DNA from: a virus
Lineage: Duplodnaviria; Heunggongvirae; Uroviricota; Caudoviricetes
DNA: 64,000 nucleotides
Virus record (IMG/VR): IMGVR_UViG_3300042870_001966
Strand: one strand, 5' to 3'
Below the pieces are notes generated by a model. The model did not search any database. It had not been told where the DNA came from and worked only from the letters and a program-made list of their open reading frames with translations. Position numbers and translations under genes: made by a program. Below, one piece after another: positions 7,865 through 51,538 of the stretch (positions are counted from its first letter, which is position 1; each line of letters opens with the position of its first letter).

Positions 7865-9421
7865 ATGTTTTTAAAAGTAAGAAAATTACAATCAATTGAG
7901 AATTTAATTCTTGAAACTGACCTGATTCAGATCGGCGATGAGGCTAACGATATTCTCAATAAAGTAAAGTCCGAAGATGATACGACTGGATCTGGGCCTA
8001 CTGGCGATAATAACGAGGACCTAAATCGTCTTCTTGATATGCTATTTAATTTAGGAGAAGATGAGCTTACTGGAAAATTAGATGATCCGACTCTGTCAAA
8101 GATATTTTCGGATCCTAAAATGAAGCAAACTCTTGAGGAGTATTTTGCATATTTACAGGAAAGAATCAAAGTCTTTAGAGAAGAGTTAATGAAAGCTCTA
8201 AATGAGGTTCCGGTAAATGAAGCAAAAGTTGGTCAAATTACAGATAAAATTACAAAATTTGTTTGTAGAGTTAGAGTAATTGAGCTAATTTATCAAAACA
8301 AAGCCTCTAAAAAGAAAGCTGGTGACGAGCCTGATTTTAGTGAAGAAATTAATAAAAAGGTTTCTGAAATAAACGATGAACTCTATAATTTGTATTCACT
8401 AATGGTAATTATACCAGCAGAGAAAACTAAACAGTCTTATTCTAAATTTCAAGGAGCTCAAAATCAAGAAGAAAAAGAAGCTGCTGCACAGGAAGTATTT
8501 TCAAATTTAGAAGCAGCTGAAATCTTAGCAGCGGAAATGCCGGAGGAAGTTTCAGCCGGAATTGAAGATGCTACAGCAACGTACACTTCTCAAATATCAT
8601 CAGAACTTGGAAATGACGTAACCTCTGACATTAAGGCTGGAGTTTACGTAAATAAGAACGTTGCCTCTTTAATTAGACGAATATTTGAATTTCAATACAC
8701 AAATTGGACAAACGAGAATGATATTTTAGCGGAAGCGAATAAGCTTAGAACAAGCGTTAATGGATTTCCGGACGTATCGACTGAAGCAAAGGAATACCTA
8801 TTGCGACTAATTGACCAGATTCAAGTAGCGTTAATTGAAAAGGCTAAGAATAAGCAATTCGATACCAAGAAATATAAAGGAATCCATTACGATTTTAATA
8901 AGAAACTACCGTTATACGAAAGAACTTCTCTTCCAGTAAATGGAAAACAAATAGCAGACGAAACTAAATTAATGAAATTTAGAAAAGCTGCTCAATCGTT
9001 AATGGAGTTGATATTCGGTGGAGAAAAAACCGGCGGAGTAACTGCACAAGCTTTTGAAAGAACTGGTAAATGGGCACATGCGATTTATGCAAAAACCCTA
9101 AACGGCGCAGCTAAAGTAATAGGAAAAGCGGTAAAAGGCCGAGAAGGAGAAATGAAAGCTGATGCGTTTAGTCGACTATTCATATTCGATACTTCTGTAG
9201 TAGACGAACCTAAGGCTAAACAGGTTAGCGAAGATGGAGTAGCTCCTGGAGTTTCTCCACAGGTACCTGGATCAATTGGCGGAATGGGAGCTATTACACC
9301 ACCGACTGAAACATCATTTGGTTCTGGAGATAATTTCGGAATTCAGAAAAAAGGCAAAAAGAAAAAGTATGGCGTTGTATTAGGCTTCGCTGATTTTATA
9401 AAAGAACAAAATAACCTATAA
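7865..9421 (+). CDS. hypothetical protein, probable virion/internal protein
   Basis: 518 aa helical ORF in late operon; C-terminal VLGFADFIKE motif. Confidence 0.6.
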   Translation: MFLKVRKLQSIENLILETDLIQIGDEANDILNKVKSEDDTTGSGPTGDNNEDLNRLLDMLFNLGEDELTGKLDDPTLSKIFSDPKMKQTLEEYFAYLQERIKVFREELMKALNEVPVNEAKVGQITDKITKFVCRVRVIELIYQNKASKKKAGDEPDFSEEINKKVSEINDELYNLYSLMVIIPAEKTKQSYSKFQGAQNQEEKEAAAQEVFSNLEAAEILAAEMPEEVSAGIEDATATYTSQISSELGNDVTSDIKAGVYVNKNVASLIRRIFEFQYTNWTNENDILAEANKLRTSVNGFPDVSTEAKEYLLRLIDQIQVALIEKAKNKQFDTKKYKGIHYDFNKKLPLYERTSLPVNGKQIADETKLMKFRKAAQSLMELIFGGEKTGGVTAQAFERTGKWAHAIYAKTLNGAAKVIGKAVKGREGEMKADAFSRLFIFDTSVVDEPKAKQVSEDGVAPGVSPQVPGSIGGMGAITPPTETSFGSGDNFGIQKKGKKKKYGVVLGFADFIKEQNNL

Positions 9422-9423
9422 TA

Positions 9424-9849
9424 ATGAATAAAATTGTTAAAACATTTGAAAATTTCCTAGAAGGACCAGAACACCATGAAATGATGCCGCATAGAGCGCC
9501 TCATCACGATATGGAACAACGAGTAGCTCACACAACTGATCATGATGATCATAGAGCTGAGAATTATATGTTCTTTGGAAATCTAGAGACAATTAAGAGA
9601 CTTGTTGATATTTTATTGGAAATGGATCCATCAAAAGTGGATGCGGTTCTAACGAATGGACACGATTGGGCAGCAGATCATATAGCTACATCAAAGGACG
9701 ATATCGAAGAAGTTGCAAATTTCTTAATCAATGAAATGGCAGAAGACTCTATTCGCGAGAACGACGAGTCGGAAGAAAACTCTATGGTTTGCGAAAACTG
9801 CGGAGTTGGGTATTCAGTTAACGAAGAACACCTTTGCGAAGAGGCTTAA
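9424..9849 (+). CDS. hypothetical protein with capsid-targeting-like N-terminus
   Basis: MNKIVKTFENFLE; His-rich segment; DWAADHI motif. Confidence 0.6.
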   Translation: MNKIVKTFENFLEGPEHHEMMPHRAPHHDMEQRVAHTTDHDDHRAENYMFFGNLETIKRLVDILLEMDPSKVDAVLTNGHDWAADHIATSKDDIEEVANFLINEMAEDSIRENDESEENSMVCENCGVGYSVNEEHLCEEA

Positions 9850-9862
9850 ATAATATTAAATT

Positions 9863-10810
9863 ATGCAAATGCAAAACCATATTAAACCATTTAAAGCATT
9901 CAATGAATCAGTTGAAGAAGTAGATGGTGAATGGTACTATGGGATCGCTGATTGCAAGGGTCTTGAATCTTTTATGCCTGCTCCAAACGTAGAAGAACTA
10001 GGAGAGCTTGAAGACATGGGATTTACTGGAGGTCAAGCTAAATCGTTCAATCATACACTAAGTATGATGAGTATGAGATGCCACTTCAATCAACAAAGAC
10101 ACCCAGTAGTTTACATGGCAAAACTTGCAGCAGACGATGCAGAAATGGTTCAGGATCTATTGGATTCAGGGGATTATATTAATGCATTAGAGGTAGTAAA
10201 AGCAAATTCAATAGAAGTTAAATTAGCTAGAGGTCAAGGAGCAAATCTAGAGAAACGATGGAGAATGATTCCTAATCCGGATCTTGATCCAATGTCTGAA
10301 GGTTTAGAATACCATATCACAAATAATTTATCAGTATGCGAGTCTATTTATAGACCAGCCAGTGATGCTCACTTTAGCCTATTAGCTGAAGCCCGAAGTC
10401 GATTTGAGTCAGGCGAATTAGCACTGTCTGGAATAGATCAGATTCTGTTTGAAGAAACGGATTTAGGTTTATTTGGAGAATACGGTGGAGAACTAGTTCC
10501 ATTAGATTTTCTATTTGAGGCAGAGTATCAAGGAAGATCGGTTGAACTTGGAAAACCTGCTCGAGGTGGAGCCAAGAAATACCACGTTTACGTAATGAAT
10601 CCAAAAACAAAAAGGGTAAAGAAGATTTCATTTGGAGACGTTCACGGTGGACTAACTGCAAAGGTTAGTGATCCGAAAGCTAGAAAAAGTTTCGCGGCTA
10701 GGCACCAATGTCATCTAAAAAATGATAGACTTACTGCCGGTTATTGGGCATGTAGAATAAATCGATATGCTAACTTATGGGGAGGTAAAACTTACCCAGG
10801 ATTTTGGTAA
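9863..10810 (+). CDS. conserved phage protein (DUF6321-like C-terminus)
   Basis: ARKSFAARHQC...TAGYWACR motif; N-terminal IKPFKAFNE. Confidence 0.6.
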   Translation: MQMQNHIKPFKAFNESVEEVDGEWYYGIADCKGLESFMPAPNVEELGELEDMGFTGGQAKSFNHTLSMMSMRCHFNQQRHPVVYMAKLAADDAEMVQDLLDSGDYINALEVVKANSIEVKLARGQGANLEKRWRMIPNPDLDPMSEGLEYHITNNLSVCESIYRPASDAHFSLLAEARSRFESGELALSGIDQILFEETDLGLFGEYGGELVPLDFLFEAEYQGRSVELGKPARGGAKKYHVYVMNPKTKRVKKISFGDVHGGLTAKVSDPKARKSFAARHQCHLKNDRLTAGYWACRINRYANLWGGKTYPGFW

Positions 10811-10826
10811 AATAAAATAGGTACAA

Positions 10827-11324
10827 ATGAACGAAGGCAAGGTAACTGGAAAATCAGGTCCGTATTTTAAAGGACTGGCTAAGGATCAAAAGAATAAAAA
10901 GCTGAATCAAATGAATCGTCAATCAAAAATGAGCGATTCGGACGATAATGCATATAAACCAATGCCCGGAGACCTAGATAAATCAGGAAAATTTAAAGGC
11001 TCTAAAGTTAAAAGCTCATTTACCAAAAAGGTGAATCGTGAAATGGATGAGACTCTCGTCTATAAATTTTCCGAATGGGTAGAAATTAATGAGTCTAGCC
11101 CAGCAGACAAATCACTAAAGAAGAAAGCTGAAAAATATAAGATGCCATTTGGTATTCTTAAGCAAGTATTTAATAGAGGAATGGCTGCTTGGAAGACAGG
11201 TCACCGACCAGGTCAAAGTCAAGAAGCATGGGCCCATGCTAGAGTAAACTCTTTTGTTACAAAATCAAGTGGAACTTGGGGAAAGGCGGATAAGGACTTA
11301 GCTCAAAAGGTAAGAAAGAAATGA
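10827..11324 (+). CDS. conserved phage protein (DUF5824-like)
   Basis: LKQVFNRGMAAWKTGHRPG...WAHARVNSF pattern. Confidence 0.55.
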   Translation: MNEGKVTGKSGPYFKGLAKDQKNKKLNQMNRQSKMSDSDDNAYKPMPGDLDKSGKFKGSKVKSSFTKKVNREMDETLVYKFSEWVEINESSPADKSLKKKAEKYKMPFGILKQVFNRGMAAWKTGHRPGQSQEAWAHARVNSFVTKSSGTWGKADKDLAQKVRKK

Positions 11325-11590
11325 TAAAGCCTTATGTTGATATTAATGAGGTTGGTACTGAACTTGTTAGAACCTTCTCACAAGACATAGATCCAATTGA
11401 GTTAAAATGGCATAGAGACGACGAAACTCGACATTTAATTTCAGAAAATGACACGGACTGGATGATTCAAATGGATAATGCACTGCCGACGTCGTTAAAT
11501 AATATAGTAACGATTCCTAAACATGACTGGCACCGCCTTATTAAAGGAACCGAAGACTTAACCCTAAAAATTAAAAAAGAGAAAGTATGA
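11321..11590 (+). CDS. small cupin-like protein
   Basis: WHRD...WHRLIKG double-His beta-rich pattern; translationally coupled to neighbours. Confidence 0.45.
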   Translation: MIKPYVDINEVGTELVRTFSQDIDPIELKWHRDDETRHLISENDTDWMIQMDNALPTSLNNIVTIPKHDWHRLIKGTEDLTLKIKKEKV

Positions 11591-11973
11591 AATTTTCAGT
11601 CGGAGACAAGGTGGTAATCAAGACGGACGTTGAGGAGATGCAAAACGGTCTGTTGGAATTAGTAGATGGCCTTGAAGCAGTAATCACCGAGATTTATCAA
11701 AACAGTTACGAACCAGATGTGGATCGTTTTGAAGTAGAATTAGTTAGACCAATTGAGTTTAACGGAGAAGAAATTGTGGTAGTCCCAGGACTTTACCAAG
11801 ATAATATCGACCTTGTTAAGAAGGTTGATGAGTCTAAAAAACGTAATTTAGCTAAGAGTAAATTAGTTAATGAACGTCGAGTGTCTTCGTTTAAGGAGCT
11901 GGAATATAGATTAGCAGTAATTGCTAAATCCGAAGCAGTTTCAGAGAAGAAAAAATTAAAATTCGCTAAATAA
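11587..11973 (+). CDS. hypothetical protein (SH3/KOW-like N-terminus)
   Basis: MKFSVGDKVVI...GLEAVITEI beta-barrel pattern. Confidence 0.5.
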   Translation: MKFSVGDKVVIKTDVEEMQNGLLELVDGLEAVITEIYQNSYEPDVDRFEVELVRPIEFNGEEIVVVPGLYQDNIDLVKKVDESKKRNLAKSKLVNERRVSSFKELEYRLAVIAKSEAVSEKKKLKFAK

Positions 11974-12470
11974 TGCAGAAACACGTAGCTCTATACGAAG
12001 AATACAAAAATCCATGGGCAGATGATGTATTGACCATGGAAGTGGAAAGATATGACGTTGACTTAACTAATTTTCCTAGACAGATTGAAAACAAGGCTGC
12101 TGGTATTTCTCCTGAAGATAAGGACCAGCTGAAAGATTTAGGTTTTGACTCAATGGCGGAAATAAACGACCATTCTCACGGAACATGCAAGATACTGTAT
12201 AAAATCGATGCAGTTCACTCACGACATGGAATTGAGGATATTGATTTTGAACTTAAGGGCTTCTATCTTATGATAGAATATTCAATTTGGGACGAGGCTA
12301 CCGATGAAGAAATTTGGCACGAGATTGAATTAGAAGACGGCGGAGATTTCTCAGGAAGAGTTGAAGCTAAGATAGAAGGCTTGCCTTTTTATCCACATGG
12401 TATTGAAATAGACATGCACGGTGGATTTGACGTAAGTAAATTTACATACACGGTGCAGATCGGAAGCTAA
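11973..12470 (+). CDS. acidic hypothetical protein
   Basis: 165 aa ORF, TAATG coupling; no known motif. Confidence 0.55.
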   Translation: MQKHVALYEEYKNPWADDVLTMEVERYDVDLTNFPRQIENKAAGISPEDKDQLKDLGFDSMAEINDHSHGTCKILYKIDAVHSRHGIEDIDFELKGFYLMIEYSIWDEATDEEIWHEIELEDGGDFSGRVEAKIEGLPFYPHGIEIDMHGGFDVSKFTYTVQIGS

Positions 12471-12491
12471 TCAGTTACTCTGAAATACTGG

Positions 12492-12521
12492 AAAGGAAGG
12501 TCTGTCGATCTTCCTTTTTTT
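12492..12521 (+). terminator. intrinsic terminator
   Basis: AAAGGAAGGTC-TGTC-GATCTTCCTTT followed by a T run. Confidence 0.8.
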
Positions 12522-12531
12522 ATTTAGGTCG

Positions 12532-12539: not shown

Positions 12540-12563
12540 CTATAACGAAACAAATCAAAAGAA

Positions 12564-14564: not shown

Positions 14565-14575
14565 TAAGATTAAGT

Positions 14576-23438: not shown

Positions 23439-24344
23439 TTGAAAAATTATTATAAAATTCTCGAAGTTCCCGAAACAGCGGACTCTGCTGAAATAAAGAA
23501 AGCTTACAGAAAGCTTGCTTCTAAATACCACCCTGACAAAAATGGTGGAAGTAAAGAATTTGAAGAAAAATTCAAAGAAGTAGCTGAGGCGTATGAACAT
23601 ATTGGATCAGAAGATAAGAAACGAGTATACGATTCTGCCCGGGCACCTAAAAATTCTTCATTTAATTCGGAATTCTTTGGGTCGTTTCATGATTTCTCTT
23701 TCTCTGGAGCAAGAACTCAAGACTTTAGGCACTTAACGGTTACTGTTGACAAATGGGCAACCATCAAAGAATTAATGGACGGTTCGGTATTTGATATTGG
23801 ATACCCGATATCAAAAAAGTCAAAAGACGGTGCATTAAAGTTCGAAGACAAGCAAATTAGAGCAGAAGTTAATTTAGCAATTAACCCTTATCCAATTTCT
23901 TTTGAAAACGGTAAATATTTTTTAGTCCTAAAAGTCAGAGGAGGAGGGTCCAGTCAGGAAACTGAGGAAGTCGATTACTTTAACAGAAAGCGGGCAGGCA
24001 ATGTGGTTGGCGATTTAATTATTCGCATAAATGTTGATATGCTGGGCCTTGAACTTGAAGATAGTGATCTAGTTCAAGAGATTGAGATCAGCCTATATGA
24101 TATTTTGTTTAATGAAGAAGTCATTTTAGAGAGCCCATTGGGTAAAAAGTACAGAATAAAATCATTTAACCGGGATTCACTTAGTGACTTAGTAGTTAAG
24201 ATACCCAACCAAGGACTCGTATCCGCATTTGGTAAAAGAGGAAGCCATCTCTTTAAAATAATTGTGAACCGTCCGGACTTTTCGAAATTAAGTGAAGAAA
24301 AGTTAAAGGAATTCAAAGACTTACTGATTAGCATTAATAAATAA
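23439..24344 (+). CDS. dnaJ: DnaJ-class co-chaperone (J domain + C-terminal domain, no Zn finger)
   Basis: KNYYKILEV...[13 protein letters not shown] (HPD motif); GDLIIRI C-terminal pattern; no CxxCxGxG repeats. Confidence 0.85.
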
Positions 24345-24389
24345 TGTTAGTACGGCTCACCATGTATGACAGGTGGCGCGTATAAATAA
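24337..24389 (+). promoter_or_regulatory. tandem late-type promoters (24337-24344 and 24381-24389)
   Basis: ATAAATAA in dnaJ NK-stop codons and a canonical TATAAATA upstream of the head operon. Confidence 0.6.
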
Positions 24390-24408
24390 TCAAAAAAGTC
24401 TGATACAA

Positions 24409-26394
24409 TTGGCTAATCCTAAAATACAAAGTTTGAACAAGACATCTGTTCCTGACAACTCAGTATTCATTATTGAGAAAATCAACGAAGCTGTCACTGT
24501 AACTAGAGAAGATAACGACATTATCCTTGAAGGTACTGCCGCTGTTTTTGGAGTAATGAACGAGAATAATCGAGTTTACGAAAAACAGGAGTATTTACCT
24601 CATCTAGAATACCTAAAAAAGAAGATCGAAGAGCGCAGACTCTTTGGTGAACTTGATCACCCACAAAAATTTGATGTTTCTTTAGCTAACGTATCTCACG
24701 TAGTAGAAGGACTTACTTACGATGAAGGTTCAAATAGCGTAAAGATTAGACTTCGTCTTCTTGATACTCCTTGTGGAAAGATCGCTAAGACCTTAGTTGA
24801 AGCTGGTTGCACAACAGCAGTTTCATCAAGAGCAGCAGGTAACGTTTCTGAAAACGGAAAAGTTAAGTTGCATAAAATCTTTACTTATGATTTAGTAGCA
24901 GAACCTGGTTTCTCTCAAGCATCATTAAGTCAAGTGTCTGAAAGTTTACAAGGTAACTTTGCTTCTATCTTTGAATCATTGGATACACTAAAGACAACTG
25001 CTATAACTAGCAAACTAACAGATATTTCTGAAAATTTCAACTTTGCAGATTCTGTAAAGATTTATAAAATAAATAATTCTGAAATTCCAACCCAACAAAA
25101 TAATACACAGCAAATGGCTAATGAGTTTGTAACAAAAGATGAAATGAACCAATACTCTGAATTGGTTAAGAAGAAATTCTCAACTTTACAAGAGAGTATT
25201 TCAAAAAACAATAAAGGTCTTAAGCAGATCAGCGAAAGCACAGCTGGTGAATCTCCAGTAGTTGCTAAAATGGTAGAATACGTTAATTACCTAGCAGGTG
25301 AAATGGAGCAGTTAGTTGAATATTCTAACTACCTATCAGCAATGTTAGGAAAAGGTATCAACTACACTGAGCACGTTGCAGAAAAAGTTAATAATGTTAT
25401 TGACTATTCTGACTACTTAGGAGAAAAAGTTGAAAAGAATATCCAGTATTCTGAATACTTAGGAGAAAAAGTTAACCAAAACATTAACTACTCTGAATAC
25501 GTTGCAGAAAACGTTGAAAAAACTATCGAATACACTAATTACTTAGCTGAGAACGTTGATAGAGGAATTCAATACGCTGAATACGTTGGAGAAAATGCAG
25601 AAAAAGGAATCCACTATTCTAACTATATCGCTGAAAACTTAGAAGCCGCTATTAAATATTCTGATTACTTAGGTGAAAACTTAAATAAAGGTATTAAATA
25701 CTCTGAGTATATCGCAGAATCACTTAATGAAAAAGTTCTTCCAGGAGCAACAGCTAAGACTCGTTCTCTACTTGGAGAAGTTAAGAAATTAAACGAAGGT
25801 GTTGAATTTGAAATCAGTGAAACTTCTACAGTAGATGACCTAGTTGGTGCAGTAGACGGTATCTTAACACATATTAAATCTAATTCAGCAAACGCAGTTC
25901 TAGAAGGTAAATATCCTTTCTTAAAATTGTTAAGCGAAGGCCGTAAACAAGCATTTTACAAGTTAGATCAACCTACTAAAACCGCAATCGTTGAAACTCT
26001 TAGAGGAGCAATCTACTTTAATGAAGAAGAGGTAGTTAATATCATGGAGGCAGTTCTTAACAAACAGGTTGAAAACACTCCTAACTATATTAAATTTATG
26101 CCAGCTGCTTACAAAAATGTATTTGAAAGTATGACTGAAGGAGAAAGAAATTGGGTTGCTGCTCAAGCAAACACACTAGTTCTTAATTCAGCATATCAAG
26201 TTAAATCTTTCTGGGATTCTCGTGACTTCAGAGGAATTAATGAAAGAATTGCAACAGAGACTATTATAAATAATAACACTATTAACGAAAGCCAAGGTAA
26301 AGAAGGTTATGTGTCGTTAAATCAAGTACACGAAAGCTTAAGAGGCTATTCAAATACTTACATAGACATGCTTAAAAGAAAAGCACAAAACTAA
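24409..26394 (+). CDS. prohead protease (gp21-like) fused to scaffold/core domain
   Basis: FGELDHP, VSSRAAG, TYDLVAEPGF gp21 motifs; long coiled-coil C-terminus; start moved to in-frame TTG 24409 downstream of TATAAATA. Confidence 0.85.
   Translation: MANPKIQSLNKTSVPDNSVFIIEKINEAVTVTREDNDIILEGTAAVFGVMNENNRVYEKQEYLPHLEYLKKKIEERRLFGELDHPQKFDVSLANVSHVVEGLTYDEGSNSVKIRLRLLDTPCGKIAKTLVEAGCTTAVSSRAAGNVSENGKVKLHKIFTYDLVAEPGFSQASLSQVSESLQGNFASIFESLDTLKTTAITSKLTDISENFNFADSVKIYKINNSEIPTQQNNTQQMANEFVTKDEMNQYSELVKKKFSTLQESISKNNKGLKQISESTAGESPVVAKMVEYVNYLAGEMEQLVEYSNYLSAMLGKGINYTEHVAEKVNNVIDYSDYLGEKVEKNIQYSEYLGEKVNQNINYSEYVAENVEKTIEYTNYLAENVDRGIQYAEYVGENAEKGIHYSNYIAENLEAAIKYSDYLGENLNKGIKYSEYIAESLNEKVLPGATAKTRSLLGEVKKLNEGVEFEISETSTVDDLVGAVDGILTHIKSNSANAVLEGKYPFLKLLSEGRKQAFYKLDQPTKTAIVETLRGAIYFNEEEVVNIMEAVLNKQVENTPNYIKFMPAAYKNVFESMTEGERNWVAAQANTLVLNSAYQVKSFWDSRDFRGINERIATETIINNNTINESQGKEGYVSLNQVHESLRGYSNTYIDMLKRKAQN
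25273..25734 (+). repeat. 11 x 42-bp (14-aa) coding tandem repeat
   Basis: Units such as IQYSEYLGEKVNQN, INYSEYVAENVEKT, IKYSDYLGENLNKG. Confidence 0.9.
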
Positions 26395-26411: not shown

Positions 26412-28079
26412 ATGGCAACTAAAATTTTCAAAAAATTGAACGACGCTTCAATTAACGAAACTTGGACTCCAGTTTTAGAAGGTTACGGTGCAGACGTAAA
26501 AGCTCGCCCTTGGTTAGTAGACTACGCTCACAACCACGCAATTTTCGATAACGCAGGTTCAATCAATGAATCAGCGGTAGCTCCAGGATTGTTCTTACAA
26601 CAACCAGGTTCTATCTCTTCAATCGGTGCAATCTCTGCTCCAACTAGCTCAATGACTCCATTCTCATCTGCTGGTGTAAAAAACGGTTACGGTGCTTCTG
26701 CATCAGGTTCTGGTGATAAATTCCCAAGCCTTTTACCGGTAGCTATCCAAGTAGCTGCTAAAACTATCGGTTTCGACCTAGTTGGTGTAGTTCCTATGGA
26801 TTCTCCAGTAGGTTTCTTACCTTATTTGGATTACGTATACCAAGGTGGTAACACTGATAAAGCATACGAGCCATTCATGGTTAAAGTTCCTTCAATCAGC
26901 GCATCTATCGCAGTTGGTAAATTCATCGACGGTACTAACGCAGATTGGAAATTCCAATTGGTTGGAAAATCACGTGTTGATGGTCAACCAATCCTTAAAG
27001 TAGTAACTGGTACTGATGGTGCTACTACTGTTGCTGACTTCCTTGCATCAATTAGTGCTACAGCAATCGGTTCTGGAACTGGTGCTACAGGCGATCCTTA
27101 CGATGGTTTAGGTACAACTGCATTCGCAGCTAACACAGTTACTTTGGTATCTGCTTTAGAAAACCACATCTCTGGATTTACTTCAGTAAGTGATGATGAT
27201 TATGCAACAACTGCATTTGATGGTCCTTTCTTAGGCGACACAGGTTCTCAATTACCATTCGAAGGAATGAAGAGAGAAGTTGCTGAGGTTTCTAAATTCC
27301 GTCAAATGGGTCTTCGTATGTTTACGAAATTCATTGAGGCTAAAGGTGACCAAGTTGCTATCTCTGCAACTGTTGAGCAAATCCAAGATCTTAACCGAGT
27401 TTGGAATTTCGACGTAATCTCTATGTTAGAGAACGTAGCAGTTAACGAGCTTGCTCAATCAATCAACAAAAAATTAGTTGACCGTGTATTCAAATTAGGT
27501 TCTGTTCACAACACTGCTATCGCAGCAGTTGAAGGTGCAGGAATCACTACTTTGGACTTAACTGTAGGTTCAACTGGTTTCGAGAACATCTCAACTTTAC
27601 AACGTCGTGTTGTAACTAAAATCCTTGAAATGGCTAACTTGATTTATCATAGAGGTCGTTTCGGTGCAGGTACTTACATCGTTACTAACGGTCGTGTTGC
27701 TTCTGCTTTAGCAGACGTAGCTGGTTACTCGTTCGCTCCTTTCAATAACGATCTTCCATCTGCTGCTGGTCAATTGTACCCTGCAGGTAAAGTTCACGGT
27801 TTAACTGTGTACGTAGATCCTAACTTGAAATTCAGCGACGATCGTATCCATATCGGTCGTAAAGGCGCTGATGAAGAGCCAGGTGTTAAATTCCTTCCAT
27901 ATATCATGGCAGAGTCTCTTCAAACAATCGCAGAGGGAACTTTCTCTCCGAAAATTGGTATGAAGTCTCGTTATGCTATTACAGAAGCTGGATGGCACCC
28001 AGAAACTCAATACATTACCTTGAACGTAACAGGTCTAGGTGTATTGACTGGTTCTACTCGTCCTTCTGCATCTTACTAA
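26412..28079 (+). CDS. major capsid protein (gp23-like)
   Basis: AAKTIGFDLVGVVPMDSPVG, LAQSINK, VYVDP, QPKIG-like FSPKIGMKSRYA; strongly biased codon use. Confidence 0.92.
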   Translation: MATKIFKKLNDASINETWTPVLEGYGADVKARPWLVDYAHNHAIFDNAGSINESAVAPGLFLQQPGSISSIGAISAPTSSMTPFSSAGVKNGYGASASGSGDKFPSLLPVAIQVAAKTIGFDLVGVVPMDSPVGFLPYLDYVYQGGNTDKAYEPFMVKVPSISASIAVGKFIDGTNADWKFQLVGKSRVDGQPILKVVTGTDGATTVADFLASISATAIGSGTGATGDPYDGLGTTAFAANTVTLVSALENHISGFTSVSDDDYATTAFDGPFLGDTGSQLPFEGMKREVAEVSKFRQMGLRMFTKFIEAKGDQVAISATVEQIQDLNRVWNFDVISMLENVAVNELAQSINKKLVDRVFKLGSVHNTAIAAVEGAGITTLDLTVGSTGFENISTLQRRVVTKILEMANLIYHRGRFGAGTYIVTNGRVASALADVAGYSFAPFNNDLPSAAGQLYPAGKVHGLTVYVDPNLKFSDDRIHIGRKGADEEPGVKFLPYIMAESLQTIAEGTFSPKIGMKSRYAITEAGWHPETQYITLNVTGLGVLTGSTRPSASY

Positions 28080-28198: not shown

Positions 28199-28564
28199 AT
28201 GAGCAACACCGTTTTAAATTACGCACAATTTCTTTTAGAGAAAAAAGCGATCAACCAGGAAATGGCAGATCTTCCTAAGGGTAAAGGTTCTAAATCTAAC
28301 AAGTCAGTTAATGCTGAGATGAAAGAACTTCCTAAAGGTAAAGGTTCTAACTCAAATAAAACTGTTAAACCTGAAATGGCAAGTCTTCCTAAAGGTAAAG
28401 GTACAACTAGTACAAAAACAGTTGATACTAAAACTTCTAAATTGCCTACTAGCAAAGGTACGGCTTCTAATAAAGTAGTAGATTCTAAAATGGCGAAGAT
28501 CGTTATTAAAGGAAATGCTATTAATAAGAAAGTTGAGCCTAGCATGGCTAAAATGCCTAAGTAA
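28199..28564 (+). CDS. Lys-rich repeat protein, candidate DNA-condensing internal protein
   Basis: N-terminal VLNYAQFLLE then 19-aa MxxLPKGKGxxSxKxV repeats. Confidence 0.7.
   Translation: MSNTVLNYAQFLLEKKAINQEMADLPKGKGSKSNKSVNAEMKELPKGKGSNSNKTVKPEMASLPKGKGTTSTKTVDTKTSKLPTSKGTASNKVVDSKMAKIVIKGNAINKKVEPSMAKMPK
28262..28561 (+). repeat. about 5 x 57-bp coding tandem repeat
   Basis: Unit starts at 28262, 28319, 28376, 28433, 28490 (CTTCCTAARGGTAAAGGT core in first three). Confidence 0.8.
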
Positions 28565-28584: not shown

Positions 28585-28890
28585 ATGTCAGATAAAAATA
28601 AAAACAGACTAACTCCATTTAAACAGTTCGTAATTCAAGAGAATTCTATAAAGGATTTAGTTGGAAAATCAGACGACGAGGAATTGGATTTAGATGATGC
28701 ACGTAGCATCGGAAAGAAAATTTCACGTATGAAGGGCGAAGATCGTAAGAAATTCGTAGGGATTGTCAATTTCATGGGAGCTTCATGCCGAATCTATAAT
28801 GAGATTTGGGCAAATTACAAGCCAGTTGATCCAACTAAGAAAAAATCCAACCGCGGAAAAGAATTCCAAGGCGAAAAAGAAATAGGATAA
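28585..28890 (+). CDS. hypothetical protein with capsid-targeting-like motif
   Basis: LTPFKQFVIQE near N-terminus. Confidence 0.6.
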   Translation: MSDKNKNRLTPFKQFVIQENSIKDLVGKSDDEELDLDDARSIGKKISRMKGEDRKKFVGIVNFMGASCRIYNEIWANYKPVDPTKKKSNRGKEFQGEKEIG

Positions 28891-30544: not shown

Positions 30545-31198
30545 ATGGACATGTTTAACGTAAAACGCAGAGATAATCCTTCTATGGATCGATACAGTGA
30601 CTTGAAGAAGCCTGCATTCGGAGGTCCCAAAGAGAAGGAAGACTTTGATAAATCAAAAAGAAAATCACTTGATGGATACCAACGAGTAGTCGACAGAAAT
30701 GCCGATTTTGAAGGTGGAAAATTCAATCATAATTATGACACGACGTGGAAAGCAGTAACTCGTGACTTAATCTCAAGAACTGCTAAGAAAAAACCATTTG
30801 ACCCTATGTACGCAAAACCAACAATCGCAACAGTTGACGCTGTTGAAGAAGGAAAAATTAAACGTTTCGAACAATTCGTAAACGAAAATGAAGGCTATAA
30901 CATGTTCGCAGAAGCTGAAGAGGAAGCTCCAGAAATGGAAGAGACTCCAGAAGAAGGAGCAGAAGTAGAAGAAATTGAAGTAGACGAAGAGCAATTAGAA
31001 AATCTAATGGCTGATTTCGGAGAAGATCTTGAAGCTATGATCGAAGATATCGCTGAAAAGATGGAAATTGAAAAAGAAGAAGTTTGCAATCTACTTTGTG
31101 CAGCTGTTAAAAAACTTTGTTTAGAAGAAGAATCTGAAGAAGGTGAAGAAGACGAGAACGAAGAAGAAGAGAACGAAGAAGAAGACGAAATGATGTAA
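30545..31198 (+). CDS. acidic hypothetical protein
   Basis: Basic N-half, internal IKRFEQFVNE, Glu-rich C-half. Confidence 0.6.
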   Translation: MDMFNVKRRDNPSMDRYSDLKKPAFGGPKEKEDFDKSKRKSLDGYQRVVDRNADFEGGKFNHNYDTTWKAVTRDLISRTAKKKPFDPMYAKPTIATVDAVEEGKIKRFEQFVNENEGYNMFAEAEEEAPEMEETPEEGAEVEEIEVDEEQLENLMADFGEDLEAMIEDIAEKMEIEKEEVCNLLCAAVKKLCLEEESEEGEEDENEEEENEEEDEMM

Positions 31199-40662: not shown

Positions 40663-41335
40663 TTGCGGCTACTCCTTTTTGTTTAGGTGATGCGCTTAAA
40701 GTCTTCTTCATAGTTTTCTTAATCGCATCAACGGTTATGCTGTTATTTATATAGTTTGACAGTTTAGTCAAAAACTCCTCTTTGTTCTTGGAATTAGTGT
40801 ACATCATTTTCAATAGACTCTTACTTGGAAGTTTAATCCTAACTGCTAAGTTTAGGTCAGTATCCTCCAATGAAAACATTCCAAATAGATCGCTTGGATC
40901 TACTTGAACTTGTTGACGAAGAGCTGTTTGATTAACTGGTTCAGCAGGTCTAGCTACTGGTGCAATCTCTTTTACCGTATTAGCAAATTCAGCAGGAATT
41001 TCGGGAGCAACTTGAATATCTTCAGTTAAGGAAGGTATGTAGTTAATTGACTGGATTTCAGCCATTGATAATCTAGGCTGGTCGTCAGTGATCATCATTA
41101 AGTCTGATGAAACTGCATCTGTGTCCATTTGACTTCCATCAGATAGGACTGCTAGAAATCGACCGTTTCGTCCAGGCAGTACGTCCCTAACGGTTACAAT
41201 AGTACCAGCTTTTCGTGGATCATTTGTTTTAATCCATTGAAACTCATTTGATTGAAAGCTACTCTTAATAGCCATCATCGTTTCGATATCGTAATTCATA
41301 ATTATGTTTTTTATTTTTTTAAGCCACTTTATCAC
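40655..41335 (-). CDS. hypothetical protein
   Basis: 226 aa; real start may be ATG 41299 (MNYDIET). Confidence 0.6.
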   Translation of the reverse strand: MIKWLKKIKNIIMNYDIETMMAIKSSFQSNEFQWIKTNDPRKAGTIVTVRDVLPGRNGRFLAVLSDGSQMDTDAVSSDLMMITDDQPRLSMAEIQSINYIPSLTEDIQVAPEIPAEFANTVKEIAPVARPAEPVNQTALRQQVQVDPSDLFGMFSLEDTDLNLAVRIKLPSKSLLKMMYTNSKNKEEFLTKLSNYINNSITVDAIKKTMKKTLSASPKQKGVAAND

Positions 41336-42701
41336 TGGACAATTGTTCTTCTAATTTTTTCATTTCGTCCTTAGTATCAACACGACCATTGTATAGTCTT
41401 GTTAAAATAGTTCGAGCAGCTGAATCGTATTTCTTAGTAAATAACGTGTCGTTCTTGGTTAAGACCTGATCAATCGTAGGTTCTTGACCAGCTTTAATTT
41501 TTCCACCGTATGAATCTGGTGAAATATTAAATTGGATTTGGATATTGGGATACATTGAGGCAAAGTCAAAACATGAAACGTATTTGTAATATCCAGGTTC
41601 AGGCTTAGCGACGTATGCTCCATCGTAAGTTGCATCTTCTTCTAATTCTCTTCGGTCGTTTGCCATATACAAACCTCTTTCTAAGAATTCACGACACATT
41701 AGAGTTTCAGTAATGAATACTGCAGAGAATACTTTTGATACATCGACCTTTGCAAACTTGGAGATAGCGAAGGCTACATCAAGCAATCCAAGCTTATCTT
41801 CAATTAGTTTAACTAGAATTGTATCGATAATGTTATACTTTGTAAAGTTCTCAACGTCTTGCTGAGCTTCCATCATTGTTGCATATTCACTATGTAATTT
41901 AGTTGTTCCTAATACTAAATTTGCAATGTAATCTAACTTGTAATTCTCAACTACTTTGTAAGGTTTAGTATTCATAAACACTTCCATGTAATCCAGAAGT
42001 CCTAAGTGAACTGGCATTTTGGCCTTGCCGATTAGGGTTTTAGAAGGCATGTTTAACATTGGTTCAATTCCTAAATTCTTACAACGATTAATTAAATACA
42101 ACCAGTCAAATCCAATTACGTTCCAGCCTGTTAAGAAAGGAATCTTTGGAAGAACTTTGTGAAAGAAAGTTTTCATTAAGTCTTCTTCATGTTCAAAGAA
42201 TAGGTGCTTAACTACGAACGTTTGCTCATGCGCTTTAAAATAATCATTTACTTCGTCTTCTAGTCGAGTAACTACATCAGGTGCAAGATCTCGCATAGTT
42301 GACATTACGAAACATACGTTATCTTCATTTACGAAAGTAATCATATTAACCGGCATTGCGGCTTTAGCTGGATCTGGGAAATCTTGAGAAATAAGCTGAA
42401 TCTCAATATCCAGATAGTATTTCTTTGGGCTATCATCTGAATAAATTGAAGCGAGCTCAGTTTCGGCTAACCTAGTTTGAGTTAACTCTTCAAGCCTAAA
42501 TCGACTTAACCATTTTCCTTGAACCTTCTTTAGGAATCTTCCATCCCAATTTCTATGTTCAGTTGGAGTTGGCGTTAGATTCCAGTTGTACAGGTCATGC
42601 GGAAGTATTGGTTTCTTCATGAATCCGATATTTCCATCTGGTTTATAATATGAGATTAGAAGAGCTGAGTCTTCTGTGTGAAATTCTGTACTTACAATCA
42701 T
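41319..42701 (-). CDS. family B DNA polymerase, N-terminal half only (gp43A-like)
   Basis: Exo motifs LDIE, GWNVIGFDW, YNIID; palm motif A FDFASMYPNI; ends in first fingers helix; no KxxxNSxYG or YxDTDS. Confidence 0.85.
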   Translation of the reverse strand: MIVSTEFHTEDSALLISYYKPDGNIGFMKKPILPHDLYNWNLTPTPTEHRNWDGRFLKKVQGKWLSRFRLEELTQTRLAETELASIYSDDSPKKYYLDIEIQLISQDFPDPAKAAMPVNMITFVNEDNVCFVMSTMRDLAPDVVTRLEDEVNDYFKAHEQTFVVKHLFFEHEEDLMKTFFHKVLPKIPFLTGWNVIGFDWLYLINRCKNLGIEPMLNMPSKTLIGKAKMPVHLGLLDYMEVFMNTKPYKVVENYKLDYIANLVLGTTKLHSEYATMMEAQQDVENFTKYNIIDTILVKLIEDKLGLLDVAFAISKFAKVDVSKVFSAVFITETLMCREFLERGLYMANDRRELEEDATYDGAYVAKPEPGYYKYVSCFDFASMYPNIQIQFNISPDSYGGKIKAGQEPTIDQVLTKNDTLFTKKYDSAARTILTRLYNGRVDTKDEMKKLEEQLSSDKVA

Positions 42702-46501: not shown

Positions 46502-47089
46502 TTAGTCACGACCGGTCATGATCTCTTCCATAACTCTAACTGTATCAGTTGAATCGTTATGTAAGATACCCGTTCCGCCGTGCTCAATCCATTTCTCCAA
46601 TTTCTTTTTAAAATCGTCGATTAGAATGTCTTTTTCGCTAGTTGCGTACTTCCATTTGTCTTGATCTAGAACAAGCCTAGTATCAGGAGTCATATCCGCT
46701 GGGTCAGTTACTGGCTCTTGGTCAATTCCTAAATTTGAATTTACCCAACGAGTCTTACCAATAAGACACTCAGGACTACGGCTTGGTGCAGATAATAAAA
46801 TTGGGTCATATCTTTGTAAGTAATCCCATAATTCTCTGCCGTCTTTGGTCCATTGTAGGTTAGCCCAGAAGTCTGCTCCTAACTTATCCAGTAATGGCCA
46901 AATTGAGTTCTTTCCGTTTTTCTTTTCGTATTCCTTAGGTGAAAGATTTTCAGTGTTTTCTTCAATATCTTGAAAGCCTCTATCAAAATCGACAAGGACT
47001 CCATCTAAATCACAGAACACTCGATATTTACCCTCTTTACCTTCGTTTACGAATTGTTTAAATTTCTTAAGCATTTTCTTTAAGTTCAA
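46502..47089 (-). CDS. HAD 5'(3')-deoxyribonucleotidase-like protein with capsid-targeting-like N-terminus
   Basis: VFCDLDGVLVDFD, ILLSAP, GKTRWV, ILIDD; likely start ATG 47074 (MLKKFKQFVNE). Confidence 0.75.
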   Translation of the reverse strand: MNLKKMLKKFKQFVNEGKEGKYRVFCDLDGVLVDFDRGFQDIEENTENLSPKEYEKKNGKNSIWPLLDKLGADFWANLQWTKDGRELWDYLQRYDPILLSAPSRSPECLIGKTRWVNSNLGIDQEPVTDPADMTPDTRLVLDQDKWKYATSEKDILIDDFKKKLEKWIEHGGTGILHNDSTDTVRVMEEIMTGRD

Positions 47090-47399
47090 ATTGTGTAGTC
47101 TCGTCTTTGTTTATAATGGCGACAAGATCGTTTGCCATAATGATGTGGTAGTTAGTACCGTCCCACTGGACGTCAAGTCCTGAGTATCGTTGATATAAAA
47201 CTCGATCGCCTTCTTTGATTGGGCAACCTGAATTACTGGAAACCAGATGGCCTACTGCAATTACTACTCCGGTATTGGGTCTTTTTCTAGCATCAACTGA
47301 TAAAATGATGCCTGTTTCAGTTTTAGACTCTACTGAGTCCGGTAAAACTAATATTCTTTCGAATAGAGGAATAAATCCTCCTTTGATTGGTGTACTCAT
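47067..47399 (-). CDS. groES: co-chaperonin GroES
   Basis: PLFERILV, KTETGIIL mobile loop, GVVIAVG, EGDRVLY, IMANDLVA. Confidence 0.9.
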   Translation of the reverse strand: MSTPIKGGFIPLFERILVLPDSVESKTETGIILSVDARKRPNTGVVIAVGHLVSSNSGCPIKEGDRVLYQRYSGLDVQWDGTNYHIIMANDLVAIINKDETTQFELKENA

Positions 47400-48508: not shown

Positions 48509-48511
48509 AGT

Positions 48512-48817: not shown

Positions 48818-48836
48818 GTTTGTATGTTGTTATTTT

Positions 48837-49898
48837 TTATAGATCTTTGAATAAATCGTCTAAGTCATCTGCTTTAGCTGGAGCAGCTGGCGCAGATTTT
48901 ACTGGAGCTGGACTTTCCGTTATTGAACCAAAATCATCGTCTAATTCAATTGACATATTAGAGCTTGATGTAGCTGGCGCAGCTGGCGTATATTCCAAAG
49001 ATTCTCCCATTGGTGCTTGAGAACGATTAACTGGAGCAGAGTTAGTAAAGTGTTTCTTCATTCTCTCATCTTTAGTGTTTGCAACTAAGTTATCGATGAT
49101 TTGTTTGTAAGGAACGATTGCTTTGATAAATTCTGCAACTTTTTCATACTCATGGTCAGTCCACTCTTTTAAGAAGTATTGACTCATGTCCGGTGAGTTC
49201 TTTTTAAAGAACTCACTAGTAAATTGCATTACTTTAGGCTCATTAGATACTGCGATCTCTTTTCCTGCATGAGAGATAATCAAAGGACTAACTTCATTCA
49301 TGAATTTACTTGAACTGAAATCTCTCCATGCTTTCGTTTTACGTTTAATAACTAATACGAAGTCCTTACCAGTAGTAAGAGAGAATGGATTGATTTTTTG
49401 AGTTGTTACTAACTCATTTTCTGGATTGATCTCTTGTTGAATCAAGTTATCAATAGTGTATCCGTAAGAATAAACTTTGATTTTGCCTTCCAATTGTGGA
49501 AATTGAGGGTCTTTCTTGATGTAAACACAAGAGTAATAATTGTAGTAACGATTGAAGTACTTCTGAATTTCTTCAACAATTGAAGGTTCTTCGTTTTTCA
49601 AACGTTTTAATTCCAAGTCCAATGTCCAAAGAATTGATGATGCGCCAGTAGTAGAAGGGCAGTCAACGTACAACTTCTCATTTGTTAGAGGGTTGATAAG
49701 TTTTGCTGCGTACTTCTTGTAGCGGCTTTTACTAGGATCCGTTACCCATGGGATAAAACGGATTACTGATTTGTAGATTCCGTTCTGACCTTGGTCTGGA
49801 CCCGGATTGTACATGTTTTCGTCGACTTTGCGAGCGTTTGCTGATGATTTACCTGAGAAATCATCGAGATTGAGATTGAATAGATCTTCCATGTTCAA
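48837..49898 (-). CDS. single-stranded DNA-binding protein gp32-like
   Basis: VIRFIP, CPST, GKIKVYSYG, FSLTTGKDFVL, acidic tail DDLDDLFKDL. Confidence 0.85.
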   Translation of the reverse strand: MNMEDLFNLNLDDFSGKSSANARKVDENMYNPGPDQGQNGIYKSVIRFIPWVTDPSKSRYKKYAAKLINPLTNEKLYVDCPSTTGASSILWTLDLELKRLKNEEPSIVEEIQKYFNRYYNYYSCVYIKKDPQFPQLEGKIKVYSYGYTIDNLIQQEINPENELVTTQKINPFSLTTGKDFVLVIKRKTKAWRDFSSSKFMNEVSPLIISHAGKEIAVSNEPKVMQFTSEFFKKNSPDMSQYFLKEWTDHEYEKVAEFIKAIVPYKQIIDNLVANTKDERMKKHFTNSAPVNRSQAPMGESLEYTPAAPATSSSNMSIELDDDFGSITESPAPVKSAPAAPAKADDLDDLFKDL

Positions 49899-49918
49899 AA
49901 ATGATTTTAATTTATAGA

Positions 49919-49945
49919 ATTATACTAAATAAGTGTGAGAGGTTT
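49919..49945 (-). promoter_or_regulatory. AAAC-N16-GTATAAT promoter (class A)
   Basis: Motif match upstream of gp32-like gene. Confidence 0.7.
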
Positions 49946-49947
49946 CC

Positions 49948-49980
49948 AAAAAAATAGGGCGAGTTTTAATACCCGCCCTC
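49948..49980 (-). terminator. intrinsic terminator
   Basis: Minus strand GGGCGGGT-ATTAAA-ACTCGCCC then ATTTTTTT. Confidence 0.75.
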
Positions 49981-50003
49981 TAATGTGAACTTTTAATCTA
50001 AAA

Positions 50004-50198
50004 TTAAGCTTTTGGAGCTGTCTTAGAAGATTGAACGTGAGTTCTTCCCTCTTGGCAAGTAGCTTTAATTTCTTGAAGAAGACCACGAGTTCTAGTACCC
50101 GCAGATTTATTTCCTTTTTCGTAGAATTTAACCGCTTCTGCTTCAAGTTGAGCAACTTGGTCCTTTAATTGTGTTAACCATTCTGGTGTCATAATCAA
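50004..50198 (-). CDS. histone H1-like Hc1 family small basic protein
   Basis: KFYEKGNKSAGTRTR motif; likely start ATG 50192. Confidence 0.75.
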   Translation of the reverse strand: MIMTPEWLTQLKDQVAQLEAEAVKFYEKGNKSAGTRTRGLLQEIKATCQEGRTHVQSSKTAPKA

Positions 50199-50213
50199 TA
50201 AGTATTTTTGTAT

Positions 50214-50240
50214 CTTATATTACGAAACTTCACCCGGTTT
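50214..50240 (-). promoter_or_regulatory. AAAC-N16-ATATAAG promoter (class A)
   Basis: Motif match upstream of Hc1-like gene. Confidence 0.6.
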
Positions 50241-50246
50241 TAAATA

Positions 50247-50972
50247 TTATTGATATTTGGTTGAAAATATTGCATCTGGGAATGATTTCTTAGTAAATCG
50301 TATCCAGGTTTGCATTACTTCTTCGAATTCTGATTTAGAGATTACGCCGGAAGAAACGAAAGGCCGTAAGTATGAATTGAATTCTGAATCTATTGGGACT
50401 CTCTTTTTAACAGCAGCTGCGTGCATCCCTGAGACCATTGCTGGTATTTCATCAGGTAAAAGAAAATACTTGTAATTGTCTTGAGCACCATCTCTAACTT
50501 TTTTTGAGGTTTTTACAATGTGACCGACTTTCTTGTTTACTCCTTTTTGTAAAAGGTGCTCCAATTCGTGTCTAAGTGTATCAACTATTTTAAAGTTTAA
50601 GTCTTGGTATTTAGAAGGTTCAGCGTCAGGGCTAATGTAAATAACTAGGTCTATCTCTGGAGAGTCTGGATCAGATTCAGCTGGGATATACACGTTTGCA
50701 TCAACTACAAATCCATTCTCTTCGAAATTAATGGTTTCCCAAGGAAGTCCATTAAAATCAGTAGTTTCAGAAGGATCAAAGTCGACCACTCTAACTATTT
50801 TAACAGTTAAGTCAAATTCAATAGGTTCAGAGTAGGTAAAACTCTCAGTTTTAGGTTTGCCTATTGTTGAGCCGGCTGTTTTTTTGATAAATGAAAATAC
50901 ATCGCTCGCATAAGAAGATGATAGCGTGTCGTATTTTGATTCGTATATAAATTGACTAAATCTTTTTATCAT
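50247..50972 (-). CDS. putative zincin (HExxH) protein with capsid-targeting-like N-terminus
   Basis: MIKRFSQFIYE; TLRHELEHLLQ...PDEIPA. Confidence 0.6.
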   Translation of the reverse strand: MIKRFSQFIYESKYDTLSSSYASDVFSFIKKTAGSTIGKPKTESFTYSEPIEFDLTVKIVRVVDFDPSETTDFNGLPWETINFEENGFVVDANVYIPAESDPDSPEIDLVIYISPDAEPSKYQDLNFKIVDTLRHELEHLLQKGVNKKVGHIVKTSKKVRDGAQDNYKYFLLPDEIPAMVSGMHAAAVKKRVPIDSEFNSYLRPFVSSGVISKSEFEEVMQTWIRFTKKSFPDAIFSTKYQ

Positions 50973-51538
50973 TTCTTTAAGAAGATTACATCGAGATCAC
51001 TAGTAGATGGAATTGACTTATCGTCATAGTTAATATCAATATCTCCACGATCCTTCCCTAGTTTATCAGAAGATAGTGCTGATTTTAATTTATCGTATAT
51101 GTCTTCAGGTAAAGCCTTTGTTCCAGTAAGAGCGACTGTAATCTGTTCTTTTTTATCTGTGAAGTTGTTATCGGTGATCCATTTATCTAGATCAGCTTGA
51201 GCCAATTCATATTCTTTGTATCTCTTAACTCCACCACCGTCTGTGAATTCCGAATGCCATGACTTGTCTTTATCTAAGAATACGATTCGAGTAGAACCTG
51301 TACCAGAAGAAGCAACTGGAGCATTTGGATCGGGCGGAAGTGCTGCACTAGCAAAAGGATCAGCCATTGGATCAGGAGATGATGGTGCTGGAGCATCGGC
51401 TGGAGCATCTGCTGGTGGAGCAGGTTCAGCTGGAGTTTCGTCAGCGGGTGGTTCAACCGGTTCCGCTGCAGGCTCTGTTTCTGGATCGCCTTCTGCTTCC
51501 AATAACAGTTTAAATTTACTAAAGTTAAGTATTTCCAT
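50969..51538 (-). CDS. hypothetical protein, Pro/Ala-rich linker
   Basis: MEILNFSKFKLLLE then PAEP/PADA low-complexity segment; late promoter upstream. Confidence 0.6.
   Translation of the reverse strand: MEILNFSKFKLLLEAEGDPETEPAAEPVEPPADETPAEPAPPADAPADAPAPSSPDPMADPFASAALPPDPNAPVASSGTGSTRIVFLDKDKSWHSEFTDGGGVKRYKEYELAQADLDKWITDNNFTDKKEQITVALTGTKALPEDIYDKLKSALSSDKLGKDRGDIDINYDDKSIPSTSDLDVIFLKK

Follow-up and report, generated by a model that had tools for sequence, protein, structure and literature searches.

A predicted T4-like capsid-targeting leader on about thirty proteins of a large uncultured phage

The DNA stretch analyzed here, 64,000 nucleotides long and referred to as the window, corresponds to bases 75511-139510 of one 270,962-bp virus record (G000) with direct terminal repeats and 38% G+C. 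From the window's letters alone, an original prediction had proposed that a short motif dispersed among unrelated open reading frames (ORFs) resembles the capsid targeting sequence (CTS) of phage T4, loads its carriers into the head and has them injected with the DNA; a scan of the whole proteome was suggested. The motif, hereafter the tag, is real and lies far above chance: a matrix scan finds an N-terminal site of at least 12 bits in 27 of 324 ORFs genome-wide, where shuffled proteins lead one to expect 0.1. We consider it somewhat probable, at roughly 60%, that the peptide is a T4-type signal for capsid targeting and cleavage, borne here by far more cargo proteins than in T4, with binding, cleavage, packaging and injection each predicted from sequence. 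All sequence tests run agree with this T4-like reading, namely the match of the conserved residues, the protease and capsid homologues, the promoters and the untagged replication proteins; presence in the virion and cleavage are its predicted part.

The tag consensus is M/H, I/L, K, x, F/Y, x, Q, F/W, V/L/I, N and E followed by a small residue, in summary M-h-K-x-[FY]-x-Q-[FW]-[VLI]-N-E, and the residue after the glutamate is mostly A, N, S or G. The most informative matrix columns are 0 (F/Y) and +3 (F/W), with further conservation at +4 (V/L/I) and +6 (E). The first aromatic falls at residues 4-12, the distance from ATG to tag is 3 to 11 codons, and most leaders are 11-19 residues long. Because circularity was to be avoided, a 12-column matrix was trained on 21 N-terminal sites outside the window and then scored on the claimed sites; it recovers the window's own sites. 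Of the 61 N-termini in the window, six reach 15.7 bits or more on the full matrix, and the one ranked next stands at 3.3. Internal sites of at least 12 bits number two genome-wide, against 0.7 expected from shuffles. Carriers amount to about 27 to 33 proteins in the genome (about 30; 8-10% of ORFs) and 6 to 9 in the window, so the "ten or more" originally proposed is an underestimate for the genome and slightly generous for the window. A set of 33 carriers was used for the BLASTP, promoter and orthologue comparisons below.

All eleven motif strings of the original prediction were found in the ORFs to which it had assigned them, and the tag coordinates were re-translated. The sites in the window are listed below, with scores from the full and the out-of-window matrix.

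9377..9406 (+), C-terminal tag-like LGFADFIKE of ORF 7865-9421 (518 residues, function unknown); 0.2 bits out-of-window
9424..9462 (+), N-terminal tag KTFENFLE of ORF 9424-9849 (141 residues, acidic, no family); 17.0 bits full, 8.1 out-of-window
9863..9907 (+), N-terminal tag KPFKAFNE of ORF 9863-10810 (315 residues, phrog_7595, function unknown); 19.4 full, 10.0 out-of-window
11058..11093 (+), internal tag-like YKFSEWVEINE, residues 78-89 of ORF 10827-11324; 7.5 to 8.6 bits (8.6 out-of-window), not significant alone
28199..28240 (+), N-terminal tag LNYAQFLLE of ORF 28199-28564 (121 residues, basic repeats); 15.7 full, 6.6 out-of-window
28585..28641 (+), N-terminal tag TPFKQFVIQE of ORF 28585-28890 (101 residues); 21.0 full, 14.6 out-of-window
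30854..30886 (+), internal tag KRFEQFVNE, residues 104-114 of ORF 30545-31198; 33.9 full (the genome's top site), 33.3 out-of-window
47042..47074 (-), N-terminal tag KKFKQFVNE of a 5'(3')-deoxyribonucleotidase, ORF 46502-47074 (counted from ATG); 31.6 full, 30.2 out-of-window
50940..50972 (-), N-terminal tag KRFSQFIYE of ORF 50247-50972 (241 residues, virus-only family); 30.4 full, 26.6 out-of-window
51497..51538 (-), variant tag LNFSKFKLLLE of ORF 50969-51538 (acidic, Pro/Ala-rich); low, 3.3 to 4.9 bits

The relatives compared are eighty IMG/VR loci with capsid proteins 52-84% identical. The 253-kb relative G002 has 15 to 17 tagged ORFs and orthologues of 20 of the 33 carriers, most of which keep the tag, or its pattern with other residues, at 30-65% identity. 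Within the N-terminal set originally claimed, clear tags stand at 9424, 9863, 28199, 28585, 46502 and 50247. V-K-T-F-E-x-F is kept in the G002 orthologue of 9424 and F-K-S-F-N-E-S in the G002 homologue of the N-terminal part of 9863; the orthologue of 50247 keeps F-K-H-F-I-Y-E, and that of 28199 retains the pattern with different residues, Y-E-E-Y-L-F-E. For 28585 the G002 orthologue has F-E-S-Y-M-Y-E, and the one in the 208-kb relative G004 lacks the glutamate at that position. The remaining member, 50969, is a low-scoring but conserved variant, I-L-x-F-x-x-F-...-L-L-L-E, which recurs in its G002 orthologue. An ESM Atlas search with 9863 and 50247 returned virus-only hypothetical clusters and no function.

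Among the copies described as internal or C-terminal, that of 30545 is the genome's best; about 36 of the relatives preserve it near residue 107, and it divides a basic part of 114 residues (isoelectric point, pI, 9.4) from an acidic part of 103 residues (pI 4.1). The copy in 10827 is of moderate strength; chance alone would give about 1.7 internal sites of this kind in the window. The conserved C-terminal domain of this protein begins at residue 92, just past the tag-like copy, and its G002 homologue has a tag at the N-terminus together with a separate V-N-E at the same internal place, before the conserved domain. These internal copies had been taken to suggest polyproteins, an idea that finds no support: in 30545 and 10827 they end basic N-terminal regions of about 80 to 114 residues, and in sequence they look like the ends of long propeptides or like core-type proteins cut in the manner of T4 gp22, gp67 and gp68. 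The C-terminal copy of 7865 fails the matrix, though the segment is conserved in the G002 orthologue as F-S-D-F-L-K-Q, and its membership in the family is uncertain; C-terminal trimming occurs in T4 Alt as well (PMC9026906). A PHROGs search of the neighbours in 7865-12470 gave no head or tail assignment. The weaker member proposed at 56465 (K-T-F-K-E-I-L) scores -3.3 bits with the out-of-window matrix and was rejected; its ORF, 56465-60823, lies in an early-strand block, encodes 1452 residues and has no PHROG match. Also rejected, as a 50969-like variant, was the N-terminus of UvsX (F-A-K-F-...-L-L-E), which scores below 0 and lies within the conserved UvsX core.

The T4 CTS is carried by the internal proteins IPI, IPII and IPIII and by the Alt propeptide (Mullaney and Black 1996, reviewed in PMC9026906, PMC3012670, PMC5694885), and the protease gp21 cleaves after L/I-x-E (PMC9026906, section 2.5-2.6). 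Within the IPIII leader, residues 4 and 7 are the main determinants of targeting, and residues 8 and 10 those of processing (PMC9026906, section 2.6). The four most conserved columns of the tag (aromatic 0, aromatic +3, hydrophobic +4 and Glu +6) correspond to precisely these IPIII residues 4, 7, 8 and 10; since they are the residues that T4 needs for head loading and cutting, injected proteins may be readable from sequence. IPII and IPIII start M-K-T-Y-Q-E-F-I-A-E, IPI has a related leader, and on the matrix of this phage the leaders of IPII and IPIII score 12.0 bits and that of IPI 0.5. As in T4, a 10-19-residue N-terminal leader on unrelated proteins presents aromatics three apart and then hydrophobic-x-Glu, in the company of a gp21-family protease, a gp23-family shell, late-promoter context and variable accessory cargo, here known from sequence alone. 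In contrast to the handful of carriers in T4, there are about 30 here (8-10% of ORFs); the tag has a basic M-h-K-x prefix with strong Q and N, and the cargo includes recognizable enzymes. PHROGs and Pfam gave no match to the T-even IPI, IPII or IPIII families among the window carriers; it is in the leader only that the carriers resemble these T4 proteins.

The mature parts of the 33 carriers have no mutual BLASTP similarity at E<1e-3, with scattered weak matches at E<1, and Pfam and PHROG assign them to diverse domains: phage lysozyme, NUDIX, VanY, peptidoglycan-binding, 2H/Acb1-like phosphoesterase and HAD nucleotidase, with further, weak matches to nucleotidyltransferase and metallopeptidase. 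Because the mature parts are unrelated and the domains diverse, the tag behaves as a signal and does not reflect common ancestry. Synonymous codons vary at conserved tag positions in about genomic proportions (TTT/TTC 20/5 and 9/15; GAA/GAG 18/6), which places the conservation at the level of protein and not of a DNA element. Enzymes had been foreseen among the cargo, and one of the window carriers is indeed recognizable as such, although it is the only one: the product of 46502-47074 matches phrog_2643, and its fold corresponds to that of 5'(3')-deoxyribonucleotidases. AlphaFold2 models this nucleotidase (predicted local distance difference test score, pLDDT, 93) with the tag as a low-confidence helix at residues 5-11, a disordered linker at residues 11-14 and a confident HAD core from residue 18 onwards. 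The tag is retained in more than 100 nucleotidase homologues at 45-87% identity. More distant ones (P0111-P0120) have no leader or a different one, M-I-K-L-x-E-L-L-x-E, which resembles the propeptides of T4 gp24 and Alt; judged from these sequences, other phage lineages may use an all-aliphatic version of the tag.

The machinery expected to recognize and cut such a leader is encoded in a T4-type morphogenesis block of the window, which also includes tail tube (29939) and tail sheath (43364) genes and baseplate parts. Its principal head features are as follows.

24373..26394 (+), prohead protease of the T4 gp21 family, 673 residues, fused to a helical C-terminal extension; PF03420 38.4 bits (above cut-off), phrog_207 1.7e-37
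25273..25734 (+), eleven tandem 14-residue repeats, protease residues 301-454 (a rod of about 155 residues), most with [FY]xx[FY][LVI]xE
26412..28079 (+), major capsid protein of the T4 gp23 family; phrog_138, BLASTP to T4 gp23 9e-16, 23% identical

Alignment of the protease to T4 gp21 retains the positions of His85 and Ser140, which we take to be the catalytic residues of gp21; a PDB sequence search with the protease gave no match. The repeat consensus is I-x-Y-S-E-Y-L-G-E-K-V-x-K-x, and AlphaFold2 predicts long helices at 295-369 and 375-452 with low pLDDT, the protease domain and the C-terminal helical domain being better defined. Sequence and model together suggest a protease fused to a scaffold-like rod that bears cleavage-type sites sharing the tag pattern. 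The pattern [FY]xx[FY]hxE occurs in 5-10 copies in the proteases of all relatives with at least 44% protease identity and is absent from the proteases of the distant relatives L083 and L091; these keep the 14-residue period with h-N-E in a different register, and the L091 protease has an extra long Gln-rich spacer. In the capsid protein, I51-N52-E53 (26562-26570) is the only column in the N-terminal region that is conserved as h-x-E followed by S/A/N/Q in 16 diverse relatives, and it is the probable site of the maturation cut; the predicted tripeptide, I-N-E, is the same h-N-E that ends the tag. Unlike T4, this phage has no gp22 homologue that we could find, its protease bears its own repeat scaffold, and its capsid protein is only 23% identical to gp23. 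The candidate core for tag binding is probably the helical repeat extension of the protease.

The promoter context is likewise T4-like. The T4 late promoter is TATAAATA. In the genome analyzed here, ATAAATA, usually as ATAAATAAC, is enriched 23-fold upstream of genes and resembles the T4 element in sequence. A site of the ATAAATAAC type precedes the protease, sheath, tube and 12564 genes, and ATAAATA stands directly upstream of 16 of the 33 carriers compared with 43 of the 291 remaining ORFs (p=2e-5). Shortly beyond the window, G000:C1:139689-140048 encodes a protein weakly homologous to gp55, the late sigma factor of T4 (25% identity across 120 residues, E 2.4e-5). Four such promoter-like sites head the tag-bearing operons of the window.

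7169..7177 (+), late-promoter-like ATAAATAAC, heading an operon of about 7181-12470 that includes 7865, 9424, 9863 and 10827
28156 (+), ATAAATAAC, heading 28199 and 28585
29912 (+), ATAAATAAC, heading the tube gene and 30545
51557..51565 (-), late-promoter-like ATAAATAAC within the replication block, heading 50969 (27 nt upstream of it) and 50247

The statement that most sites lie in late-promoter operons is thereby borne out for all but 46502, which is without an exact site. The gene at 28199 has its own promoter-like site and follows directly on the capsid gene, and its mature part has a pI of 10.3; its product is a good candidate for an abundant internal, DNA-associated protein. ORF 28199-28564 is built of about five 19-residue repeats with the core L-P-K-G-K-G.

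Tag load varies between relatives in a way that may parallel the repeats. The 176-kb G006, whose protease shows 47% identity, has 13 N-termini at 8 bits or above. In G004 (capsid protein 57% identical) no tag reaches 12 bits, and a de novo search of this genome for an alternative N-terminal motif found nothing convincing; G008 (61 kb) has a single tag. In G004 and G008 the 14-residue repeats of the protease lack the [FY]xx[FY]hxE pattern, and tagged ORFs make up 5-8% where the repeats carry it (G000, G002, G006) versus 0-1.5% elsewhere (G004, G008). This co-occurrence of patterned repeats and tag load, seen at the level of sequence, is suggestive. The more distant G004 has orthologues of just 2 of the 33 carriers, and neither is tagged; the cargo set therefore appears accessory, like the internal-protein loci of T-even phages.

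We propose that the amphipathic N-terminal helix of the tag, with aromatics at 0 and +3 and a hydrophobic residue at +4, would bind the prohead core, probably the 14-residue-repeat extension of the protease, and that the tagged protein would become enclosed as the gp23-type shell assembles. The gp21-type protease would then cut past Glu +6, at the same h-N-E as in the predicted capsid maturation site, and the released cargo would remain in the head and enter the cell with the DNA. A bolder extension, tentative and with the odds somewhat against it, is that the head scaffold amounts to a polymer of the cargo tag, the eleven protease repeats and the N-terminal tags having one helix pattern in common: tagged proteins would co-assemble with the core and be released by the very cut that dismantles it, and an injected proteome of about 30 proteins, including cell-wall enzymes and candidate anti-defence enzymes (2H/Acb1-like, NUDIX and nucleotidase), could be read from the genomes of uncultured phages.

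Several observations weigh against the T4-like reading. Cleavage-type [LIV]xE, which should be scarce in mature cargo if that cargo has to withstand the protease, is not depleted there (ratio 1.10 vs 1.16 in other proteins); [LIV]NE is enriched there (13 observed vs 4 expected) at scattered positions, which was taken as uninformative. The tagged nucleotidase sits in the replication block without an exact late promoter and is not an obvious injected enzyme. The top T4 match in the 100 kb scanned is the N-terminus of UvsW.1 (M-L-L-E-F-K-Q-F-L-Y-E), which at 22.5 bits belongs to a protein that is not a known head protein. The comparison of tag and repeat matrices gives p=0.15 by column shuffles, with the best register as expected (Y-S-E-Y-L-x-E over F-S-Q-F-V-N-E), and since it is not significant the likeness of tag and repeat stays at the level of pattern. 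The contrast between repeat type and tag load comes from five genomes, in which it may have arisen independently only once or twice, and one tag persists in G008. Finally, the nearest isolates are remote, with capsid proteins about 30% identical. As an observation in its own right, UvsW.1 (L093:12677-14440, uvsW/uvsW.1) outscores T4's own internal-protein leaders, a match that may be due to chance or to an unrecognized property of UvsW.1.

One alternative is that the tag is a shared recognition element with another fate, such as an inactivating propeptide, a docking helix for phage chaperones or some other intracellular address, with no packaging or injection. The phage encodes GroEL, GroES and a J-domain protein, UvsW.1 has the pattern without a known head location, the nucleotidase is found among replication genes, and packaging of the tagged proteins is itself a prediction here. 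Nevertheless, we regard this fate as unlikely: the tag is conserved at the four positions to which head targeting and processing by gp21 were mapped in T4 (PMC9026906), the tripeptide ending the tag equals the predicted capsid maturation site, and the tag is linked to late promoters, with two carriers immediately after the capsid gene. Moreover, the gp21-type protease works within T4 proheads, and cleavage by it therefore implies entry. Nor is the motif as common in replication proteins, since none of the 13 annotated replication and nucleotide-metabolism proteins in the window is tagged.

Composition or folding could in principle favour a generic N-terminal amphipathic helix with no common function, given that the genome is AT-rich, that codons for K, F, N, E and I are AT-rich and that such short helices arise by chance, as UvsW.1 may illustrate. 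We hold this to be highly improbable in view of the 27 sites observed against 0.1 from shuffles, their fixed position at residues 4-12, the conservation of the tag in orthologues whose proteins diverge and its detachment from the enzyme core in the nucleotidase model; the related G004 has none at 12 bits or above and no other N-terminal motif. An element acting in DNA or RNA, with the peptide as its by-product, would be a translation-initiation region or a gene-swapping recombination cassette of the kind proposed for T-even internal-protein loci. It would fit tags at gene starts, often 12-40 nt past a promoter-like ATAAATAAC, and the fast turnover of cargo between relatives, but it deserves hardly any credence, because synonymous codons vary freely, the tag lies anywhere between 3 and 11 codons from the ATG, the pattern persists in orthologues that use other residues, and internal copies are conserved far from any start.

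Other phages offer partial parallels to a T4-type targeting and cleavage signal. Head ejection proteins of phiKZ, 201phi2-1 and SPN3US have long propeptides that are cut by a gp21-like protease (gp175, gp245) at S/A-x-E; these propeptides mostly exceed 100 residues and are thought to target the proteins into the prohead, with support from virion mass spectrometry (PMC5694885, PMC9026906). Like those phages, the one analyzed here is large, has a gp21 homologue and Glu-ending sites, and its N-terminal regions in 30545 (about 114 residues) and 10827 (about 89) resemble long propeptides. Unlike them, it has V/L/I and not S/A at P3 and a short common tag, which the phiKZ type lacks; sites of the S/A-x-E kind on long propeptides without a short common tag do not describe this phage. 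Some other tailed phages have fused protease-scaffold proteins, for instance gpO of phage P2, with the maturation protease at the N-terminus and helical scaffolding at the C-terminus, the latter being degraded as the head matures. The predicted joining of protease and helical scaffold-like part is similar, whereas the eleven regular 14-residue repeats, most with a cleavage-type motif resembling the cargo tag, are a difference from gpO. Incorporation of the Dar proteins of phage P1 depends on a hierarchy of specific proteins and is not known to use a short common cleavable tag. The proposed likeness to Dar is that of capsid-carried proteins, the difference being the short common tag found here. 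The Dar proteins are described as anti-restriction proteins that are packaged in the head, delivered with the DNA and counter host defence (PMC9024508, PMC12810830).

Among the papers searched, none was found that describes a large family of CTS-like tags in phages that are uncultured or infect Bacteroidota. The CTS is already known in T-even phages; those papers do not describe it on this scale, in so distant a lineage or on enzyme cargo, nor do they describe scaffold repeats that resemble it. If the tag acts as in T4, sequence alone could yield a list of the ready-made proteins that a large uncultured phage brings into its host, whereas such lists normally need virion proteomics of cultured phages. 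The list, if true, points to functions of the first minute of infection: wall penetration, counter-defence and hydrolysis of nucleotide signals. In addition, the repeat scaffold is a concrete candidate for the binding partner of the CTS, a question still unsettled even in T4, and the tag could be a handle for loading foreign proteins into the capsids of this lineage.

The closest database phages are uncultured huge phages and Lak phages. Next come isolates from Tenacibaculum, Flavobacterium and Chryseobacterium, together with Sphingomonas phage PAU, at about 30% capsid protein identity, and a Bacteroidota host is likely because of the nearest isolate phages (Tenacibaculum, Flavobacterium, Chryseobacterium). 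The minus-strand block of replication and nucleotide metabolism in the window encodes dCMP deaminase, thymidylate synthase, SbcCD, DnaB, UvsX, DNA polymerase, single-stranded DNA-binding protein (SSB), exonuclease, NrdA and GroES. The match of ORF 41319-42701 (460 residues) to profiles of family B DNA polymerases is confined to their first half (phrog_262 positions 109-491 of 856), and the polymerase may be split or interrupted there. Chaperone genes comprise a GroEL-like chaperonin (60923-62506), a GroES-like co-chaperonin (47067-47399) and a J-domain protein (23439-24344), the last directly upstream of the protease gene. The longest form of ORF 7136-7426 starts from TTG at 7136; with the late-type promoter at 7169 and then an ATG at about 7181, a shorter true gene is suggested. 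A second upstream motif, T-A-G-T-A-T-A-A-T, precedes about 20-26 genes genome-wide, including those for SSB and GroEL, and in the window stands before 48837-49898, 55225-56406 and 60923-62506; it probably represents a class of early or middle promoters separate from ATAAATAAC.

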